Origin: a virus
Taxonomy: Duplodnaviria > Heunggongvirae > Uroviricota > Caudoviricetes
IMG/VR virus record: IMGVR_UViG_2648501338_000019
Reading direction: 5' to 3' (one strand)
Length of the DNA: 23,612 nt
Shown one piece after another: positions 15,470 through 23,612 of the stretch (its first letter is position 1; each line of letters starts with the position of its first letter). Position numbers and translations under genes: made by a program. Below the pieces are notes generated by a model. That model was not told the origin of the DNA. It ran no database searches and saw only the letters and a program-made list of their open reading frames with translations.

Positions 15470-16303
15470 ATGAATATTACACAAGATAACTTAGATATTT
15501 TCACTGGATCACATGTTGAAGTGTCGATCTCTAACCAGATAGACAATCAGGTCGACTTTTTCGATCCTAGCTTTAGTTCTATGGAGAACATCGCAGCATT
15601 CCCTACGCTAACCGAATCCACAGAGATAGAAACTCTGGAAGAGTACGATCAGGACGCTACGGGGAAACTTGCTGGTTATCGTAGACTGGAACCGACAACA
15701 CTCACATTAAACCGTGTTCTTGACGATGAACATCAAGCAATGTTGATGAAAGCGGTAGAGGATAAAACACCTTTACGCTTCCGTATGTTCTATGTTGTGA
15801 ACTCTGGCTATAGTGCTGCTAACACAGGGTACTTTTGTATATTCGATGCTTACGTCACATCACATAAAACCCGTGGTAGTGATAACAAAGCTGTAACACT
15901 GGAATTTAAACTTGAACCAGATGGCGGGATTTTGGCAAGGGGTATTGCTACCGAAGGCCGGATCTTACGTCAGGGTGATTTTGGTTTGGGTGCTGGTGTA
16001 AATCCATTCACGGGTCCGATTGACAGCGAGGCATTAGCCGGAAACCGTTTCGTAACTTACAAGGGAACTGCTAGCGGTAATCCATATTCAACCGACACAG
16101 CATTAATTCACCTTCAAGCTAATGAGCATGGCGCATGGCAATTAACCTGTAATACTTCTGGCGCACCGCGTTTACGTGTCCGAAATATTCAGGAAAACGG
16201 TCGTTCTGAATGGATCAAGGTATATTCCACCAATGAGAAACCGACACCTAGCGAAATTGGCGCAGTGGCTAAGACTGACCGGATCGATTTCGGCGAATAC
16301 TAA
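15470..16303 (+). CDS. hypothetical structural protein (277 aa), candidate collar or fibre-anchoring protein; C-terminus shares the KPTPxE(I/L)G motif with the fibre
   Basis: Located between neck genes and the fibre gene; C-terminal NEKPTPSEIGAVAKTD parallels GDKPTPTELGVYSKAEVD and KKPTPEQLSQGEIA in the fibre. Confidence 0.5.
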   Translation: MNITQDNLDIFTGSHVEVSISNQIDNQVDFFDPSFSSMENIAAFPTLTESTEIETLEEYDQDATGKLAGYRRLEPTTLTLNRVLDDEHQAMLMKAVEDKTPLRFRMFYVVNSGYSAANTGYFCIFDAYVTSHKTRGSDNKAVTLEFKLEPDGGILARGIATEGRILRQGDFGLGAGVNPFTGPIDSEALAGNRFVTYKGTASGNPYSTDTALIHLQANEHGAWQLTCNTSGAPRLRVRNIQENGRSEWIKVYSTNEKPTPSEIGAVAKTDRIDFGEY

Positions 16304-16384: not shown

Positions 16385-19300
16385 ATGCAATCAATCCAAT
16401 TTAAACGCACACAGACGGCGGGTAAAAAACCAACGCCGGAACAATTATCACAGGGTGAAATCGCCTTACAGTTGGCGGATCATGTGATTTACACCAAAGA
16501 CAAAAATAATAACGTAGTCCAAATTAGTGTTTCTCCAGAAAAACACGCTGAACTGAATACGAAAGTAGACAATAACAAAACTAGCACTGACCGTGTTATT
16601 GCTTCCAACAAACAAGAAGCCGCTAATAATCTGGCTAGTGCTAAAGCTGAACTGAATCAGACTATCACTTCTACCCGTGATGCTCTCAATGCTTCAATCA
16701 CTGCTGGCGACACCGCAGCCAACAAACGAATTGATGCTTTGACTACCACAGTAGGTAACAATAAAACCGAAGCGGCTAACGCTCTGGCGGCTGCTAAGAC
16801 TGAACTGAATCAGACTATTACTTCAACCCGCGATACTATCAACGCAACAATTAACAAGAACAAGACAGATATTAATGCACGAGTTGATCAGACTAATACC
16901 AACGTTACTAACTTAACGAATACTGTCTCAGCAAATAAATCAGCCATAGAAACGACCGTAGCAAATAATAAACGCGATGCCGACACGAAGATCACCAATC
17001 TTACGGGGACAGTTAATAGCAACCATACAGCAATTAACAACAAGGTAGACCAGAATAAATCTTCTACTGATGCCGCAATTGCCGCAGCTAACCAGCGAAT
17101 TGATTCTATTGAAGGTAGTGCCGATGCTGCTTACATCAAGAAGAATACCAACACTTACCATCACGGCTATCTGTTAACCAAAACAGCTAACTATTTTGAT
17201 GATGCTGGTGCTCGTAACCTTGATTATTTTGGTGCATTCCGTCCAAACAATGCCGAAGGTTGGGGTAACTTAATCCTTAACATTCCTCATTCTGGCGGTA
17301 AAGCACACGGTCGCGGTTTTGAGTTCCACTATGGGTCTAGCTCATCTCAAGTTAAAACCTATGGCTTTGATAAAGATGGTAATAAGCGATTCAGCTACCG
17401 CATGTATCACGAAGGTGATAAGCCGACTCCGACTGAATTGGGTGTGTATAGTAAAGCCGAAGTTGATCAGATGTTCATCAAGAACGTTAGAATGACCGTT
17501 CCTTCTGGTGATGCTACTCGTGGATACTTCAAGATCGCAACCGCTACGATCCCACAGAATGGTCGAATGGTAATGCTTCGTATCTTCGGTGGTAATGGTT
17601 ATAACGTTAACTCTTATGATCAGGTTGACTTTGTAGAAATTGTCATCCGTTCCGGTAACAATAACCCGAAAGGCGTTAGTATTGCTGCTTATCGTCGAAA
17701 TGCTCTGAACGTTCATCAAGTATTTGCGGTTAATACTTCCGGTGATAACTACGATATCTACGTTAACTACGGTCGTTACACCGATAACGTTATTGTCGAA
17801 TACGGTAAAACTGATGGCGTTACTCTGACAGTACATGATGTTCCTGAATTAACTCTCGTTAAACCTTCTGTTGGTGTTACCGATGCTCGTGTTATTACGA
17901 TGTTCAACACCGAAAACAAAGCCGGAACGTTGATGTTTGATAATAACTCACAAGCAACCTATGATATTGTGAGCCTTAATAACGTACCAGACAACAATAA
18001 AAAATATATGCGTAAATTCCGCAGTCGTGCGGCGGAAACAATATGGCATGAAACTGTTCAAGGTGATGTGTATCGTTTGGCTACTGGTTCCACCGACCAA
18101 AAAGAAGTATTAAAAATTGTTGGTAGTGATGGTTTATTTGTCGATAGACTTCATCTGCAAGGCAATAACGCGATTCGTATGTGGCGTCCTACTGGTCGTA
18201 GTAACTATTTTGAATATATGGATCAGCGAGACGGGGCTAATAAACGTCAAGGCTGGTTTGGTTTTGGTTCTACAGATACTAACGATTTTCAATGGTATAG
18301 TGACGAAGGTAAAAACTTTGTTAAATTAGAAGCAAGTGGTCAAGTATCTTTAAGCACAGGTGCTACCAAAATTGTATACACCAATGGTCAATATGTAGCT
18401 GCTAACAGTGATGCATTCCGTATGATTTACGGTAACTATGGTGCATTCTGGCGTAATGATGGTCAAAACGTATATCTTCTGTCTACTGCCGAAAATGATA
18501 AATTTGGTGGTTGGAACGGCTATCGTCCATTCATTTACAATCTGGGTAGCGGTAATGTTACTTTGGGTGGTGATGGTAACGAAGGTGCATTAGTCTTAGA
18601 ACGTGCAAGTCGTGCTGCTCGTTTTGCTGGAAACACATACATTAAAGGCCAATATTTAACATTTGATGCTGGTGCTGGACAATCCCGCGACTATTTCCGT
18701 TTGAGTCATTGGGGCGATAGCAATAACGCTCGTGATAACGTTATACAGCTTGAAGATAGTAAAGGTGCTCACTTCACCACTGAACGTACTTTAGCAACTG
18801 GTGCGATTAAAACTAAATTCTTCGGTGATTTGGAATCTGCTGGTCTGATTCGCTGGGGTAAGGGTACAGCTACTTCTAGTTTCAATATTCGTGCATGGGG
18901 CGCTGATGCTCGTAAACAAGTATTTGAATGTGCTGATGAAAGCGGTTGGCATTGGTATACCCAACGTCCGGGCGGTCCGGGTACTACGGCAATTGAGTTT
19001 GCCATCAACGGTACTGTTAAGCCTCAAGCAATTCACACTGGCGGTAATATCACGCTTAACGGTGCTGATATTGAATTTAAGCGCACTGGTAATAAGCATT
19101 TGTGGTTTAGAGATCCGAATGGCTTAGAACTAGGTTTGATGTATTCCGATGATGCTGGTGTTATTCGCTTCCGTGGTCAGAAACAAGCCCAGACGTGGAA
19201 ACTTGCGGATAAGATGATCCAGTTGGAATCTGGTACTGTAACCGGTGGCGGTAATGGCCTGATTCGTGGTGAAGTTGCTGGCGGTAGTTGGGCTAGCTGG

Positions 19301-19885
19301 CGTGACCGTGCTGCTGGTCTTATGGTTGGGTGTCCTCAATCCACCAACTCGGCACATAACGTATGGAAAGCGACGCATTGGGGTAAATATCACATTGCAG
19401 CAATGGGTGTGCACGTTCCTGACGGTACTATCGGTAACGCTCTTGTTCGTCTCCATGTTCATGATACTAACTTTGACTTTAACGCTGCTGGTGACTTTAC
19501 CGCAGGTCGTAACGGTTCGTTTAACGATGTTTACATTCGCTCTGACTCCCGTTTGAAGATTAACAAGGAAGAATTACAGGACGGCGCATTAGAGAAAGTA
19601 AACTCACTGAAAGTCTACACCTACGATAAAGTTAAATCTCTTAAAGACCGTAGTGTGATTAAACGCGAAGTAGGTATTATTGCTCAGGATCTGGAAGAAG
19701 TATTGCCGGAAGCAGTAGGTATTCAATCCACCGAAGATCCAGAAAATCCAGAAGCAATCAAGACTATTTCTAACTCTGCTGTCAATGCTTTAATCATCAA
19801 AGCTATGCAGGAAATGGACGCCAAATATAAAGCCCAGATCGAAGCATTACAGAAAGAAATTGCCGAACTGAAAGCAACTAAATAA
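16385..19885 (+). CDS. long fibre protein (1166 aa) with a tandemly duplicated N-terminal rod segment and a C-terminal intramolecular chaperone (peptidase S74-like) domain
   Basis: C-terminus RSDSRLKINKEEL...VYTYDKVK...GIIAQDLEEVLPEAV matches the autoproteolytic chaperone domain of phage fibres and tailspikes; N/T/S-rich beta-type sequence in the middle. Confidence 0.85.
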   Translation: MQSIQFKRTQTAGKKPTPEQLSQGEIALQLADHVIYTKDKNNNVVQISVSPEKHAELNTKVDNNKTSTDRVIASNKQEAANNLASAKAELNQTITSTRDALNASITAGDTAANKRIDALTTTVGNNKTEAANALAAAKTELNQTITSTRDTINATINKNKTDINARVDQTNTNVTNLTNTVSANKSAIETTVANNKRDADTKITNLTGTVNSNHTAINNKVDQNKSSTDAAIAAANQRIDSIEGSADAAYIKKNTNTYHHGYLLTKTANYFDDAGARNLDYFGAFRPNNAEGWGNLILNIPHSGGKAHGRGFEFHYGSSSSQVKTYGFDKDGNKRFSYRMYHEGDKPTPTELGVYSKAEVDQMFIKNVRMTVPSGDATRGYFKIATATIPQNGRMVMLRIFGGNGYNVNSYDQVDFVEIVIRSGNNNPKGVSIAAYRRNALNVHQVFAVNTSGDNYDIYVNYGRYTDNVIVEYGKTDGVTLTVHDVPELTLVKPSVGVTDARVITMFNTENKAGTLMFDNNSQATYDIVSLNNVPDNNKKYMRKFRSRAAETIWHETVQGDVYRLATGSTDQKEVLKIVGSDGLFVDRLHLQGNNAIRMWRPTGRSNYFEYMDQRDGANKRQGWFGFGSTDTNDFQWYSDEGKNFVKLEASGQVSLSTGATKIVYTNGQYVAANSDAFRMIYGNYGAFWRNDGQNVYLLSTAENDKFGGWNGYRPFIYNLGSGNVTLGGDGNEGALVLERASRAARFAGNTYIKGQYLTFDAGAGQSRDYFRLSHWGDSNNARDNVIQLEDSKGAHFTTERTLATGAIKTKFFGDLESAGLIRWGKGTATSSFNIRAWGADARKQVFECADESGWHWYTQRPGGPGTTAIEFAINGTVKPQAIHTGGNITLNGADIEFKRTGNKHLWFRDPNGLELGLMYSDDAGVIRFRGQKQAQTWKLADKMIQLESGTVTGGGNGLIRGEVAGGSWASWRDRAAGLMVGCPQSTNSAHNVWKATHWGKYHIAAMGVHVPDGTIGNALVRLHVHDTNFDFNAAGDFTAGRNGSFNDVYIRSDSRLKINKEELQDGALEKVNSLKVYTYDKVKSLKDRSVIKREVGIIAQDLEEVLPEAVGIQSTEDPENPEAIKTISNSAVNALIIKAMQEMDAKYKAQIEALQKEIAELKATK

Positions 19886-19941: not shown

Positions 19942-20415
19942 ATGTCTCAGCAATTCAAAGATATTTTTACTGGTGGTCTGGTAAGTCTGTTCTATCACGC
20001 GGACACCACTAATACCGCTCTCGACCACGAAAGCTACGAAGAAATTAAAGAGTGTGCTGGTTTTCCTGAAACTGGTATCGAGCGCGGTACTGTAGAAGTT
20101 AAATCCTTCTCTTCTCAGTATAACCGTAAACTGGTAGGGAAGCTGAACGTTCCTGATCTGACTCTGACCGTTAACTACATCCCAGGCGATGCGGTACATG
20201 AAAAACTGATCAAAGCTGCCGAAGACGGTACTCGTATTCAGATTAAAGTAGAATATTACGTTGACGCAGCAAAACAGACTGGTATTCGCACCGCTTTCAA
20301 CGGCTTCATTTCTAAAGTTGCTATGAACGGTGGCGATGAAGAAGTTGTAACCAAAGAGTTTACCTTCGCGGTGGATGGTGCTCCGCTGAAACAGCAAATC
20401 TTCACTGCCGGATGA
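19942..20415 (+). CDS. major tail (tube) protein (157 aa); TGA stop
   Basis: Size, composition and position immediately upstream of the chaperone and tape-measure genes; conserved TTAAGGGGTAAT initiation motif. Confidence 0.7.
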   Translation: MSQQFKDIFTGGLVSLFYHADTTNTALDHESYEEIKECAGFPETGIERGTVEVKSFSSQYNRKLVGKLNVPDLTLTVNYIPGDAVHEKLIKAAEDGTRIQIKVEYYVDAAKQTGIRTAFNGFISKVAMNGGDEEVVTKEFTFAVDGAPLKQQIFTAG

Positions 20416-20535
20416 ACTAACGAAGAACTTCCCGAACCGGAACCACAGCCGGAACATGAAGCGGTGGTGATTCCAGAAGTAGAAGAAGTTACGGCGAAAG
20501 CCACAGCTAAACGAAGCCGCAAGGCTAAAGATTAA
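20416..20535 (+). CDS. in-frame 39-codon extension after the major tail gene TGA (TNEELPEPEPQPEHEAVVIPEVEEVTAKATAKRSRKAKD, then TAA); candidate readthrough product
   Basis: Frame checked codon by codon; shares the opening TGA ACT AAC G and the closing VTAKAT-x-K...RK-x-K motif with the capsid extension. Confidence 0.4.
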   Translation, partial: TNEELPEPEPQPEHEAVVIPEVEEVTAKATAKRSRKAKD

Positions 20536-20540
20536 TTATA

Positions 20541-20570
20541 AGCCCTGCCTTAATGGTGGGGCTTTTTTAT
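20541..20570 (+). terminator. rho-independent terminator (AGCCCTGCC-TTAAT-GGTGGGGCT + T6), homolog of the one at 14707
   Basis: Same stem sequence as the capsid terminator; loop differs by one inserted base. Confidence 0.8.
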
Positions 20571-20583
20571 TGGAGTAATCAAA

Positions 20584-21090
20584 ATGGCGAATGTCGTTAA
20601 TAAGCCTGGCTGGGTCGGGTCATCTGCTGTTTCTGTAACTGGTCAACGATGGATGAGCGCAGCAATGAACGCATTAAAGGTTAGTCGCCCAGCTAACATG
20701 AGTGCGATGTGTGGTCGTGGTATGGATACGGTTGTAGCTACTGCTGCGTGGTCTACTTCATTGGGTAATAACTGGGGTGTAACTGCTTCAAACTATCCAG
20801 TAACTGACATGCGCGGTAAAGGATCTATGGAGAACCCCGAAAACGTGGGCGTAGGGCGTCTGATTGGCGTTATCGTTGGTCAATTCAATGGCGGTACTCC
20901 TACTATGGCTGTATATCTCCAGAACGGTAGAGCGGGGAATATAACCGTTAATTTGGGTGGTGCTGCTGTCACTGTTCCTTATAACAGTATGCAAAGCGGT
21001 TTTCATTACTATTGGTTAAGCAATCCTCCGGCTGCTTTACTCAATAACATTAAGAAGACTGGCACTAAGCAGACTTTGAAAATCTCTTAA
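20584..21090 (+). CDS. hypothetical protein (168 aa), G/S/T/N-rich beta-type; likely minor structural protein or moron between the tail tube and chaperone genes
   Basis: ORF with SD GGAG; no family recognised. Confidence 0.45.
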   Translation: MANVVNKPGWVGSSAVSVTGQRWMSAAMNALKVSRPANMSAMCGRGMDTVVATAAWSTSLGNNWGVTASNYPVTDMRGKGSMENPENVGVGRLIGVIVGQFNGGTPTMAVYLQNGRAGNITVNLGGAAVTVPYNSMQSGFHYYWLSNPPAALLNNIKKTGTKQTLKIS

Positions 21091-21135
21091 ATTCTAAATA
21101 AATACAGCGTAATCACTATTAATGAGGAAACAATA

Positions 21136-21444
21136 ATGAATCTGAATGAAATGCTGAAAGCTCTTTCTCCGAAACGTGAATCTTTAACCCTCGGAGGATT
21201 TACGTTCTATGCTCGCCCTATGTCGGTACAAGAATTTAATGAACATGTTTTCAATACTGATAAAAAAGACCGTGATGAACGCTCTATTCTTCGTTGTATT
21301 GAAGATGAAGACGGTAAGCCAGTATTTGAATCTATTGAACAAGTTAAGGCATTGTATACTAGCGTCCGCAGCGAATTAATCGGCTTAGTTGCTCAAGCAT
21401 CATTGATGAAAGATGCGGCGGTAATTGAAAACGAGGTAAAGTAA
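21136..21444 (+). CDS. tail assembly chaperone (lambda gpG-like position)
   Basis: 102-aa ORF directly upstream of the tape measure gene, with an overlapping ORF in the -1 frame, which is the canonical G/GT arrangement. Confidence 0.6.
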   Translation: MNLNEMLKALSPKRESLTLGGFTFYARPMSVQEFNEHVFNTDKKDRDERSILRCIEDEDGKPVFESIEQVKALYTSVRSELIGLVAQASLMKDAAVIENEVK

Positions 21445-21452
21445 ACCCGCTC

Positions 21453-21827
21453 TTGAATTTTTATTTTCGGCAAATGATGCGTCGGGGCTTGAGTAAAGAT
21501 GAGATGGATAATATGCCAATTACGCTATTTTGGGCGTTGCATATATTCGATACATATCTTGAACCACAAAGCCCCCTGTTTCAAGATGCGCGACATGCAC
21601 AGTCGATGTATTACATGCACGTTACATCTCCTAACATGACTCGTGAATGGTTGAATAAAATCAATGTTAACCAATTCCGAATGATTAAGGACGACAAGCA
21701 ATTTAAAACGCAAGAAGAAATAAAAGAAATTGCTCGTAAGAAAGAGGAAGAACGTAACGCTGCTTTGGTTGATAGTTTTTTCGACGCTTCATTATTACAA
21801 AAGCTCAAGAGCGGACAATTGGGGTAA
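21453..21827 (+). CDS. T-like ORF in the -1 frame relative to the chaperone gene; probably expressed only as a G-T fusion via programmed -1 frameshift
   Basis: The -1 frame opens at 21429, 16 nt before the G stop; the track's start at 21453 is a TTG with no SD; ends 3 nt before the tape measure ATG. Confidence 0.5.
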   Translation: MNFYFRQMMRRGLSKDEMDNMPITLFWALHIFDTYLEPQSPLFQDARHAQSMYYMHVTSPNMTREWLNKINVNQFRMIKDDKQFKTQEEIKEIARKKEEERNAALVDSFFDASLLQKLKSGQLG

Positions 21828-21830
21828 TTT

Positions 21831-23612
21831 ATGACAAGACATATAGTAACAATAGAAGGAGATAATGACGGTCTAAGGAGAAGTACCAATCAGGCGATAG
21901 AGATGCTTGATAACCTTTCAGAAAGGGCAATGAATCTTGATTTGTCTGGTGGTTTATCTAGTTTAAGTGGAACCCTTCGCGGAACTGGTGGATCGCTTGC
22001 TTTGGCTGCTGGTGGTTTTGTTGGTTTGGCTGCTGGCGCTATTTCTGCTGCAAATGCCATCGGTGATTATGTAAAGGAATACAGCGAAGTTTCAAAAGCA
22101 ACTGGTTTAACCGTCGAAACACTCCAGAAATTAGAGAAGCAATTCTCCGGTACTGGCTTAACCGTTGAGAAATTTGGTGATATTAACAAAGACACCTTAG
22201 ATAAGCTGGCTGATGCATGGCGTAACGGTGGCGGTATTGAAGACGACCTAGAAAGTGTAGGTTTGAAGATTAAAGATTATGCCGAGTTTATGAACGATCC
22301 ACAAGGCGGGATGAAAGCGGCGATCAAGGTCTTCTATGATATGCGCAAGGCTGGTGCGTCTATCGCTGATGTTAAGTTTATGATGGAATCGTTAGCCAGT
22401 GATTCAAGTCATATGGCTGATGAATTGCAGAAATACGGATCTTATCAGGAAGCTGTAAACGCCATTAATCAGCAAACTGTTAAAATCACCAATGACACAG
22501 CCGAAGAATATAATAAATTCTCTAAAAATATGGATACCCTTACCGATAACTTAAAGGGTATGGCTGCAAATGCACTAAATCCAGTTGTTGAAGGGATGAA
22601 TAATCTTTACAACTGGTTTGATAAAGATTGGGAAAAGACCGCTTTATTCAACGCATTAAAGACTTTTAATGAAAGGTTTGAAAAAGCTCGCCAGAATATG
22701 GCTATGGCTAACGGTGGTTTTATTAACAAGCATGGTTATAGTTCTACTGGTCTAGCGGGTGGACAAGCCAGCTTCAACAATAAACCAAATTATCCTGATC
22801 GTTGGGTGGATAGTGAAGGCGTTACCCGTGATAAAAACGGTGATCCGGTAATTACTATCACTGGAAATAAATCGGATACCGGATTTACCCCAACGGGTCA
22901 AGGTGGAGGCGTCACCGGACCATCGAAAAAAGAACAAGAAGAAGCCAAGAAGAAAGCGGAAGAGGCAGCTAAAAAGGCTAAGGAAGCCGCAGAAAAAGCA
23001 CAGAAAGCACGCGAGGATGCAATCAAGCGACTGAATGCTCTTGATGTTAAATTGCAAGGACAGACAGCCGCGTCTATTGCTTCTCAAAACAAGCAGTTAG
23101 AAGCCAGCTTGAAAGATTTAGACACTGCTTTAGATATGGGCTTAATCTCTCAGCAAGACGCAGCCGCTAAACGTCAGCAACTGTTAGATCAGAACGCAGA
23201 AAACATCTATAAAATGATGTTGGGTGCTGATCCGATTGATGCTCTGAATGCCTTAACAGTTTTGCAACAAATCAGGGACAACGAGCTAGAAAGCCATAAA
23301 CGGTTACTTGATGGTAAAGCTATCTCCTACGAAGAATATATGCGTCGTGTGAATGATACCGAGCAAAACTATTCTCAGATTGATAGTCAGTTACAGGGAA
23401 TGGATGGTTTTAAAACCAATCAATTGACTAATAGCTTAGACTATCAGGATTCAAATAACCCGTTTGCTAAATTTAATGCAATCGATCAAGAGAAATCGGA
23501 AGCTGAACAAGATTATGTGAACCGCCCCGGGTTTCCTGGAGAGTGTTTTATCTGTGAACTCAGGCTGCCAGATCATCGTTTCCGATGGAAGCATAATAAG
23601 CTTTTTCTGCTT
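21831..23612 (+). CDS. tail tape measure protein, 5' portion (open to the end of the window)
   Basis: Open frame of 594 codons with no stop; N-terminal glycine/alanine-rich hydrophobic segment (GGSLALAAGGFVGLAAGAISAANAIG) and a lysine/glutamate-rich coiled coil (KKEQEEAKKKAEEAAKKAKEAAEKAQKARE); canonical position after G/GT. Confidence 0.75.
   Translation, partial: MTRHIVTIEGDNDGLRRSTNQAIEMLDNLSERAMNLDLSGGLSSLSGTLRGTGGSLALAAGGFVGLAAGAISAANAIGDYVKEYSEVSKATGLTVETLQKLEKQFSGTGLTVEKFGDINKDTLDKLADAWRNGGGIEDDLESVGLKIKDYAEFMNDPQGGMKAAIKVFYDMRKAGASIADVKFMMESLASDSSHMADELQKYGSYQEAVNAINQQTVKITNDTAEEYNKFSKNMDTLTDNLKGMAANALNPVVEGMNNLYNWFDKDWEKTALFNALKTFNERFEKARQNMAMANGGFINKHGYSSTGLAGGQASFNNKPNYPDRWVDSEGVTRDKNGDPVITITGNKSDTGFTPTGQGGGVTGPSKKEQEEAKKKAEEAAKKAKEAAEKAQKAREDAIKRLNALDVKLQGQTAASIASQNKQLEASLKDLDTALDMGLISQQDAAAKRQQLLDQNAENIYKMMLGADPIDALNALTVLQQIRDNELESHKRLLDGKAISYEEYMRRVNDTEQNYSQIDSQLQGMDGFKTNQLTNSLDYQDSNNPFAKFNAIDQEKSEAEQDYVNRPGFPGECFICELRLPDHRFRWKHNKLFLL

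Follow-up and report, generated by a model that had tools for sequence, protein, structure and literature searches.

The closest described counterpart of the locus reported here is the G/GT pair of tail assembly chaperones in phage lambda, whose slippery heptamer we take to be G_GGA_AAG, a motif of the canonical kind. Listings of E. coli slip motifs rank it as highly shift-prone, and the lambda frameshift sets a ratio of ~30:1 between G and GT (PMC5009743). The G-T frameshift is described as conserved in dsDNA tailed phages (Levin et al. 1993; Xu, Hendrix & Duda 2004, both as cited in PMC5009743), and non-canonical motifs in tail chaperone frameshifts have already been recognised (PMC10885494).

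The window examined here, that is, the whole stretch of DNA analysed, comprises 23,612 nucleotides of a Caudoviricetes record (IMGVR_UViG_2648501338_000019). Its G-T locus shares with lambda two overlapping ORFs located just 5' of the tape measure gene, the second in the -1 frame and lacking a start of its own, together with a predicted shift near the 3' end of G, an A-site change from AAG to AAA and no evident RNA stimulator. The heptamer found here, G_GTA_AAG, is one base different from that of lambda, and P-site re-pairing is therefore imperfect. The locus also departs from lambda in having a stop codon directly after the site, a gp38-like adhesin gene between the tail tube gene and G, and a T segment without a Pfam match.

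Shorter slip sites are also known. Among tetramers, A_AAG is the one most prone to shifting in E. coli (Sharma et al. 2014, PMC4066793), and NNA_AAG hexanucleotide sites are at work in B. subtilis cdd (A_CGA_AAG) and in IS1222 (G_CGA_AAG) (PMC5009743). The efficiency of such hexanucleotides is stated to depend on how easily the tRNA on the 5' codon frees the third-position A (Licznar et al. 2003, as cited in PMC5009743). With the cdd and IS1222 class, the present site shares cognate re-pairing for the A-site tRNA-Lys only (AAG to AAA), a third-base A of the 5' codon that must be freed, and a single host tRNA-Lys. The 5' codon is GUA here and GAA in relatives, whereas it is CGA in cdd and IS1222; moreover, IS1222 and the reporter sites need a pseudoknot or other structure, and none is conserved here.

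The dnaX gene of E. coli (A_AAA_AAG) uses the same slippery Lys codon, and two of the relatives described below (L002 and L063) carry exactly this heptamer at the homologous position. In dnaX, however, an upstream Shine-Dalgarno (SD) sequence and a downstream hairpin are present, the efficiency is about 50% and the shifted product is the shorter one, whereas here there are no stimulators and the shifted product is the longer one. So-called shifty stop frameshifting, reportedly described by Weiss et al. in 1987 and said to include the +1 events of prfB and antizyme, offers a further comparison. Like those systems, the present site has a stop directly 3' of the shift codon, which could slow A-site decoding; unlike prfB and antizyme, the direction is -1 and, judging by the relatives, the stop is not required. 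By its sequence, the slip site falls within the established hexanucleotide/tetranucleotide class, and its predicted function and its position are those of the conserved G/GT frameshift, with no new mechanism.

Locus and gene order

The genes around the overlap run in the order tail tube, gp38-like adhesin, G, T in the -1 frame and tape measure (Table 1), and genes for a terminase, a portal, a probable protease-capsid fusion and a T4 gp37-like fibre lie farther upstream in the window. The tape measure gene, which starts with an ATG at 21831, is the next gene after the T-frame stop. The G/T pair thus sits at the G / T / tape-measure position of siphovirus tail modules. G matches PHROG 344 ('tail assembly chaperone', E 1.8e-7) and, below the 28.8-bit cutoff, Pfam PF16459 Phage_TAC_13 (22.4 bits, E 1.6e-4), and a profile search of G against the PDB returned insignificant EncB matches only. 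Its start is preceded by an SD sequence, GAGGA, with a duplex energy of -6.3 kcal/mol. The T segment was assigned to no family in Pfam or PHROG.

Table 1. Coordinates of the G-T region and of neighbouring tail genes in the window
Feature	Position	Strand	Details
Major tail (tube) protein gene, lambda-like, upstream of G	19942..20415	+	PHROG 158, E 3.1e-21; Pfam Phage_TTP_11
gp38-like adhesin gene	20584-21090		Between tail tube gene and G
G, putative tail assembly chaperone ORF	21136..21444	+	102 aa, stop TAA 21442-21444; ORF list, translation
TGA of the -1 frame	21426..21428	+	5' limit for a productive shift; sequence, script check
Proposed shift site G_GTA_AAG	21435..21441	+	Non-canonical heptamer; GUA_AAG hexanucleotide or A_AAG tetramer 21438-21441
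T segment, -1 frame	21441..21827	+	128 codons, GTA 21441 to TAA 21825-21827; translation
TAA stop of G	21442..21444	+	Directly 3' of the shift codon; possible 'shifty stop' enhancer
Tape measure gene, 5' part, runs off the window	21831..23612	+	PHROG 13674 'tail length tape measure protein', E 7.9e-35

The tail tube gene is flanked by genes for a T4 gp37-like long tail fibre distal subunit (1166 aa, 16385-19885) and for the gp38-like adhesin, and a T-even-type fibre/adhesin pair within a siphovirus tail-shaft module is an unusual placement; among relatives, the position of gp38 relative to the tube gene varies, being either before or after it. Just 5' of the fibre gene, a 277-aa protein (15470-16303) has an N-terminal domain that also matches the major tail protein PHROG 158. 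The 668-aa ORF at 12566-14572 matches PHROGs named 'major head protein' and 'major head and protease protein', which suggests that it is a protease-capsid fusion gene.

The overlap between G and T

The 3' codons of G, read from the sequence and checked by script, are AAC (21430), GAG (21433), GTA (21436), AAG (21439) and the stop TAA (21442-21444). In the -1 frame, a TGA at 21426-21428 is followed by a frame that is open from 21429 to the TAA at 21825-21827 (132 codons). A sequence-only reading of this DNA had placed a T-like ORF in the -1 frame opening at 21429, and both the sequence and the script bear this out. It had put the opening 16 nt before the G stop, a distance that is right if counted to the last base of the stop codon and becomes 13 nt if counted to its first base. 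The same reading had confined the shift to AAC GAG GTA AAG TAA, and we agree, as the A-site codon must be AAC, GAG, GTA or AAG. Its remark that no canonical heptamer is present also holds: no X_XXY_YYZ heptamer occurs in the 16-nt overlap (21426-21441), where the four possible heptamers are T_GAA_AAC, A_AAC_GAG, C_GAG_GTA and G_GTA_AAG, and none fits.

The last of these includes the tetramer A_AAG at 21438-21441 and conforms to the NNA_AAG and Z_ZZN motifs. In-frame A_AAG occurs at 12 of 4665 codons in the window's own genes, which gives an expectation of ~0.01 per four codons. The longest homopolymer at the shift site is AAA.

Relatives of the locus

A megablast search of positions 20500-22500 against 50,697 phage records gave no match, and tblastn against phage records found a sole match, Escherichia phage DCP80, with 30-40% protein identity. 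G homologues numbered 33, mostly of 102 aa, in prophages of E. coli, Salmonella, Proteus and Edwardsiella, and the locus is carried by 55 of 5426 complete E. coli genomes; in E. coli 39EVA (NZ_CP138416) it shows 95% identity. Scanning genome contigs with a single protein yielded nothing that could be confirmed; the same scan with an alignment yielded two loci only. In total, 74 loci were gathered from E. coli, Salmonella, Proteus, Edwardsiella and Buttiauxella prophages, IMG/VR contigs and phage DCP80, and these were reduced to 65 distinct G..T sequences and 35 distinct junction peptides. T lies in the -1 frame relative to G in all 65 distinct sequences, which cover the first 24 loci and every usable IMG/VR locus, and the 16-nt overlap is common to most of the E. 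coli, Proteus and metagenome relatives.

Some of these records merit comment in their own right. The DCP80 record (L001, PQ671644.1; 140,978 bp) is classified as Straboviridae/Tevenvirinae/Gaprivervirus and holds a siphovirus-type G/T/tape-measure module in which every gene is labelled hypothetical; its taxonomy or assembly may deserve a check. In E. coli KSC64 (L013, NZ_CP018840.1), an insertion of an IS4-like ISVsa5 transposase breaks G, and this prophage copy is probably defective. One IMG/VR locus (L043, IMGVR_UViG_2778260996_000020) has a 3-nt insertion at the junction, giving GTA AAG TAG TAA ACC and a TAG stop for G; the predicted GT gains one Val (K-V-V-N-P), and A_AAG and the -1 relation are retained. 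The T frame of L039 is cut to 96 codons and the G proteins of L058 and L071 are truncated to 74 and 84 aa, so that decayed prophages or contig problems are likely in these three. The prophage-like contig L003, from a metagenome-assembled genome named 'Sphingobacterium yanglingense' (JBEBQJ010000175.1), has a junction identical to that of the IMG/VR loci L064 and L065 and 56% identity to enterobacterial G; its assignment to Bacteroidota is doubtful and may be a binning artefact.

Conservation of the slip site

An in-frame A_AAG inside the overlap is present in all 65 distinct sequences, many of which have an overlap of only 16 nt; this and the following counts are phylogenetically non-independent and span G identities of 30%-100% and T identities of 28%-68%. 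The codon 5' of AAG is GTA in 50 of these sequences, GAA in 10, AAA in 2 and TTA in 1, and canonical heptamers stand at the homologous position in three relatives: A_AAA_AAG in L002, from Buttiauxella, and in L063, and an unannotated T_TTA_AAG in the G-T overlap of DCP80. Because the base preceding GTA is either G or A, re-pairing in the P site is not conserved.

Column variation was assessed in 30 distinct 129-nt segments of the group that has GTA_AAG_TAA at the junction. The ten bases GTAAAGTAAA are unchanged in all 30, and 46 of 54 upstream columns of G are variable. Codon choice shows a similar pattern. At the site, Lys is encoded by AAG in every one of the 65 sequences, compared with 321 AAA to 87 AAG (~4:1) elsewhere in G, and GTA makes up 37% of the other Val codons (162/442). 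These comparisons point to selection on the nucleotide sequence of the putative slip site itself.

Comparative evidence for -1-frame translation

In the 33 nt after the first -1 codon, the variable columns among the 30 segments number 4, 2 and 11 of 11 at positions 1, 2 and 3 of the -1 frame, respectively. Read in either of the other two frames, the fully variable position would be codon position 1 or 2, which is a non-coding pattern. The conserved junction peptide is K|(V/E)NP(L/F)LxFYxRQMMRRGLSKxEMDNMP, which becomes (N/D)W(A/V)KxFxYRxxxR(R/K)GL in the deeper branches and always starts no more than 3 residues from AAG. An alignment of 18 diverse T members (28-68% identity) likewise begins no more than 3 residues from the junction and well before any ATG. 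The T ORF is therefore a shifted frame that is coding from the overlap on, without a conserved start or ribosome-binding site of its own; the candidate starts either lack an SD sequence or are not conserved.

In four relatives (L014, L063, L072 and DCP80), the conserved part of T begins inside G, sharing 12-33 nt with its 3' end, and is therefore unreachable by reinitiation after the G stop. Termination-reinitiation was set aside, there being no conserved start codon near the stop. For the window, the predicted Glu-C junction peptide of GT is VKVNPLLNFYFRQMMRRGLSKDE, and the tryptic peptide VNPLLNFYFR is encoded 5' of every T-frame ATG. At the level of sequence, these data demonstrate that the -1 frame is translated from the junction.

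Stimulatory elements and the adjacent stop codon

No conserved RNA structure was found downstream of the site: for 16 diverse relatives, from the site to +100, the RNAalifold consensus had an energy of -0.3 kcal/mol and a trivial 3-bp helix, and the window's own 89 nt folded no better than shuffled sequences (z = +0.68). A search upstream for a conserved, suitably spaced SD-like stimulator was also negative. SD-like sequences are reported to stimulate -1 shifts from 6-17 nt upstream (PMC4066793). The GAGG at 21433-21436 was rejected for this role, with a spacing of 0-1 nt and with GAAG, TCGG, GCGG or TCAG in relatives, and an AAGGT or GAGGT at about -12 occurs only in some Salmonella-type relatives.

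The sole recurrent neighbour of the site is the stop codon, which directly follows AAG in 24 of the 35 junction types; a further 7 types have it one codon on, and the other 4 have it at a distance of 4-11 codons. In the 11 types with a sense codon after AAG, that codon is AAA, AAC, GAA, TCC or CCG. Close relatives are among them, as TAA is replaced by AAA in L014, L017 and L018 (Edwardsiella and Salmonella variants). The frequency of the stop and its invariance in the window's lineage suggest that it helps. Nonetheless, because the relatives with a sense codon after AAG keep A_AAG, the stop is probably not essential to the family; the slip on A_AAG would be the core event, and the adjacent stop is probably a local enhancer at most rather than a family-wide requirement.

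Proposed mechanism

Enterobacteria have a single tRNA-Lys, with a UUU-type anticodon. Most ribosomes would translate G (102 aa) and terminate at the TAA at 21442, and in a minority the tRNA-Lys on AAG 21439-21441 would re-pair with AAA 21438-21440, one base back. The next codon would then be GUA 21441-21443, leading to a 230-aa GT fusion, and the T segment would be produced only as the C-terminal part of this protein. The tRNA-Val on GUA in the P site would keep partial pairing only, on GGU. The slip could occur in two ways: the tRNA-Lys may slip in the A site or while translocating together with tRNA-Val (the hexanucleotide mode), or peptidyl-tRNA-Lys alone may slip in the P site while UAA awaits release factor (the shifty stop mode). 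Both modes predict the same protein and are inseparable by sequence.

In our view, a -1 shift at 21438-21441 is the likely source of GT. The sequence-only reading had proposed a G-T tail-chaperone shift by lysyl-tRNA slipping from AAG to AAA, and the conserved A_AAG, the invariable choice of AAG, and the -1-frame coding signature and conserved protein sequence from AAG on all back it strongly. It had also placed TAA in the A site during the slip; here the change from AAG to AAA stands, but the 11 of 35 junction types argue against a requirement for TAA, in which a sense codon comes next. Comparison among the relatives establishes the location and direction of the predicted shift as well as -1-frame translation from the junction; the event itself is presumably ribosomal and low-level. 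By analogy with lambda gpGT, the G part of GT would act on the tape measure and the T part would recruit the tail tube protein.

In E. coli reporters, tetramers without a stimulator shifted at 0.147% against a background of 0.112%, and A_AAG needed the IS3 pseudoknot to reach 5.6% (PMC4066793). Because stimulator-free tetramers barely exceed background in such reporters, the efficiency here may be very low, well under the ~1:30 of lambda, or the stop or an unrecognised stimulator may compensate. One reading of the family is that it represents a natural stimulator-free -1 system in which a stop directly after a minimal A_AAG replaces an RNA structure or SD sequence; we hold this tentatively and consider it, on the whole, unlikely. 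The associated proposal that the P-site codon has drifted among GUA, GAA, AAA and UUA with function kept is similarly doubtful.

No natural in-frame G-T fusion was found in an exhaustive HMMER search with the T part against 1.84 billion protein representatives. The 18 best matches were all 62-130 aa long. Two long proteins (1364 and 1164 aa) matched weakly (E 3e-4 and 1e-3), in interior pieces only.

Alternative explanations

The alternative closest to the A_AAG slip is a pure shifty stop, in which the P-site slip of peptidyl-tRNA-Lys from AAG to AAA depends entirely on the slow decoding of UAA, so that the stop is essential. Slow A-site codons, stops included, are known to promote P-site slippage (PMC5009743). 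The stop adjoins AAG in the window and in the 24 junction types counted above and is no more than one codon away in another 7, and the search for other stimulators was negative. Moreover, all 30 distinct close segments have TAA, although a change to TGA would leave the T-frame Val unaltered (GTG = Val). On the other hand, GTA_AAG, GAA_AAG or AAA_AAG variants exist in which a sense codon comes next and the stop is 1 to 11 codons away, and the stop would seem dispensable in the family because such variants, including L014, L017 and L018, keep the site. An essential stop is possible, if somewhat against the balance of probability. The A_AAG slip might also be replaced by independent translation of T from an internal start (ATG 21474 or 21477, the choice of gene callers, or TTG 21453) with no fusion made. 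In favour of this, PGAP and other callers annotate separate T genes, all representatives of the T family in the large protein library begin near the methionines of Q-M-M-R, and the ATG of that motif is present in most close relatives, so that some independent initiation may occur alongside the shift. The annotated T starts, however, differ among near-identical relatives, DCP80 has Leu-Ile-Leu in place of the methionines, and anti-SD pairing at ATG 21474 and 21477 (-1.1 and -1.7 kcal/mol) is at background level (median -1.5), that is, no SD is present. TTG 21453 does have a GAGGT upstream, with a duplex energy of -6.9 kcal/mol, but the distance is 15 nt and the codon is CTG, TTA or CTT in relatives. 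The 11 codons 5' of ATG 21474 carry a clear -1-frame coding signature, and the conserved (V/E)NP(L/F)LxFYxRQ begins right at the junction. We regard independent translation as the sole source of T as improbable.

Two further possibilities concern where and at which level the shift takes place. An earlier slip on T_GAA_AAC (21426-21432), with tRNA-Asn moving from AAC to AAA, would give the junction ...VIEN-RGKVNPLL...; A_AAC qualifies as a Z_ZZN tetramer and, in the window's own E. coli lineage, falls within the part of the overlap where a shift is permitted. This motif is not conserved, however, since TCC, CAA or GAA takes the place of this codon in relatives whose overlap is likewise 16 nt, and A_AAC is not among the shift-prone tetramers of E. 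coli, for which the hierarchy is A_AAG >> U_UUC > U_UUU > C_CCY > A_AAA (PMC4066793). A slip at this point is very improbable. Transcriptional slippage, in which realignment of RNA polymerase yields a subpopulation of -1 mRNA, might be entertained for L002 and L063, which have a run of seven A at the site, near the length where slippage is possible; known cases require homopolymers of about eight or more (PMC3711429), and only AAA is present at the site (GTAAAGTAAA) in the window and in 60 of 65 relatives. As an account of this locus, it is scarcely credible. A +4 hop of tRNA-Lys to AAA 21443-21445 was rejected, as it lands in the +1 frame, which is closed after 18 codons.

Annotation and significance

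In public annotations, G and T are always separate genes, and a GT fusion or frameshift appears in no record. PGAP calls T in the E. coli RefSeq genomes (L004-L012) as a separate hypothetical protein of 100-116 aa with a varying start: where G ends at locus position 1942, the T call starts at 2011 in L005-L007, and it begins 33 nt after the G stop in L004 and 45 nt after it in L012. Most G homologues (P0002-P0028) are named 'cytochrome' in NCBI and UniRef, with no support from Pfam or PHROG, and this looks like a propagated misannotation.

For an enterobacterial prophage family that is widespread (E. coli, Salmonella, Proteus, Edwardsiella and Buttiauxella), the analysis puts the annotation right; it leaves the understanding of frameshifting and of tail assembly unchanged. 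It would also provide a comparative example suggesting that a minimal NNA_AAG site, without an RNA stimulator, is enough for a tail-chaperone frameshift; where such minimal sites are usable, programs requiring X_XXY_YYZ will therefore miss the frameshift. The natural variants of the site, with GUA, GAA, AAA or UUA as the 5' codon and a stop or sense codon 3', suit reporter work. If the stimulator-free reading is true, the family would form an evolutionary series for how P-site pairing and a stop or sense context in the A site set low-level ratios.
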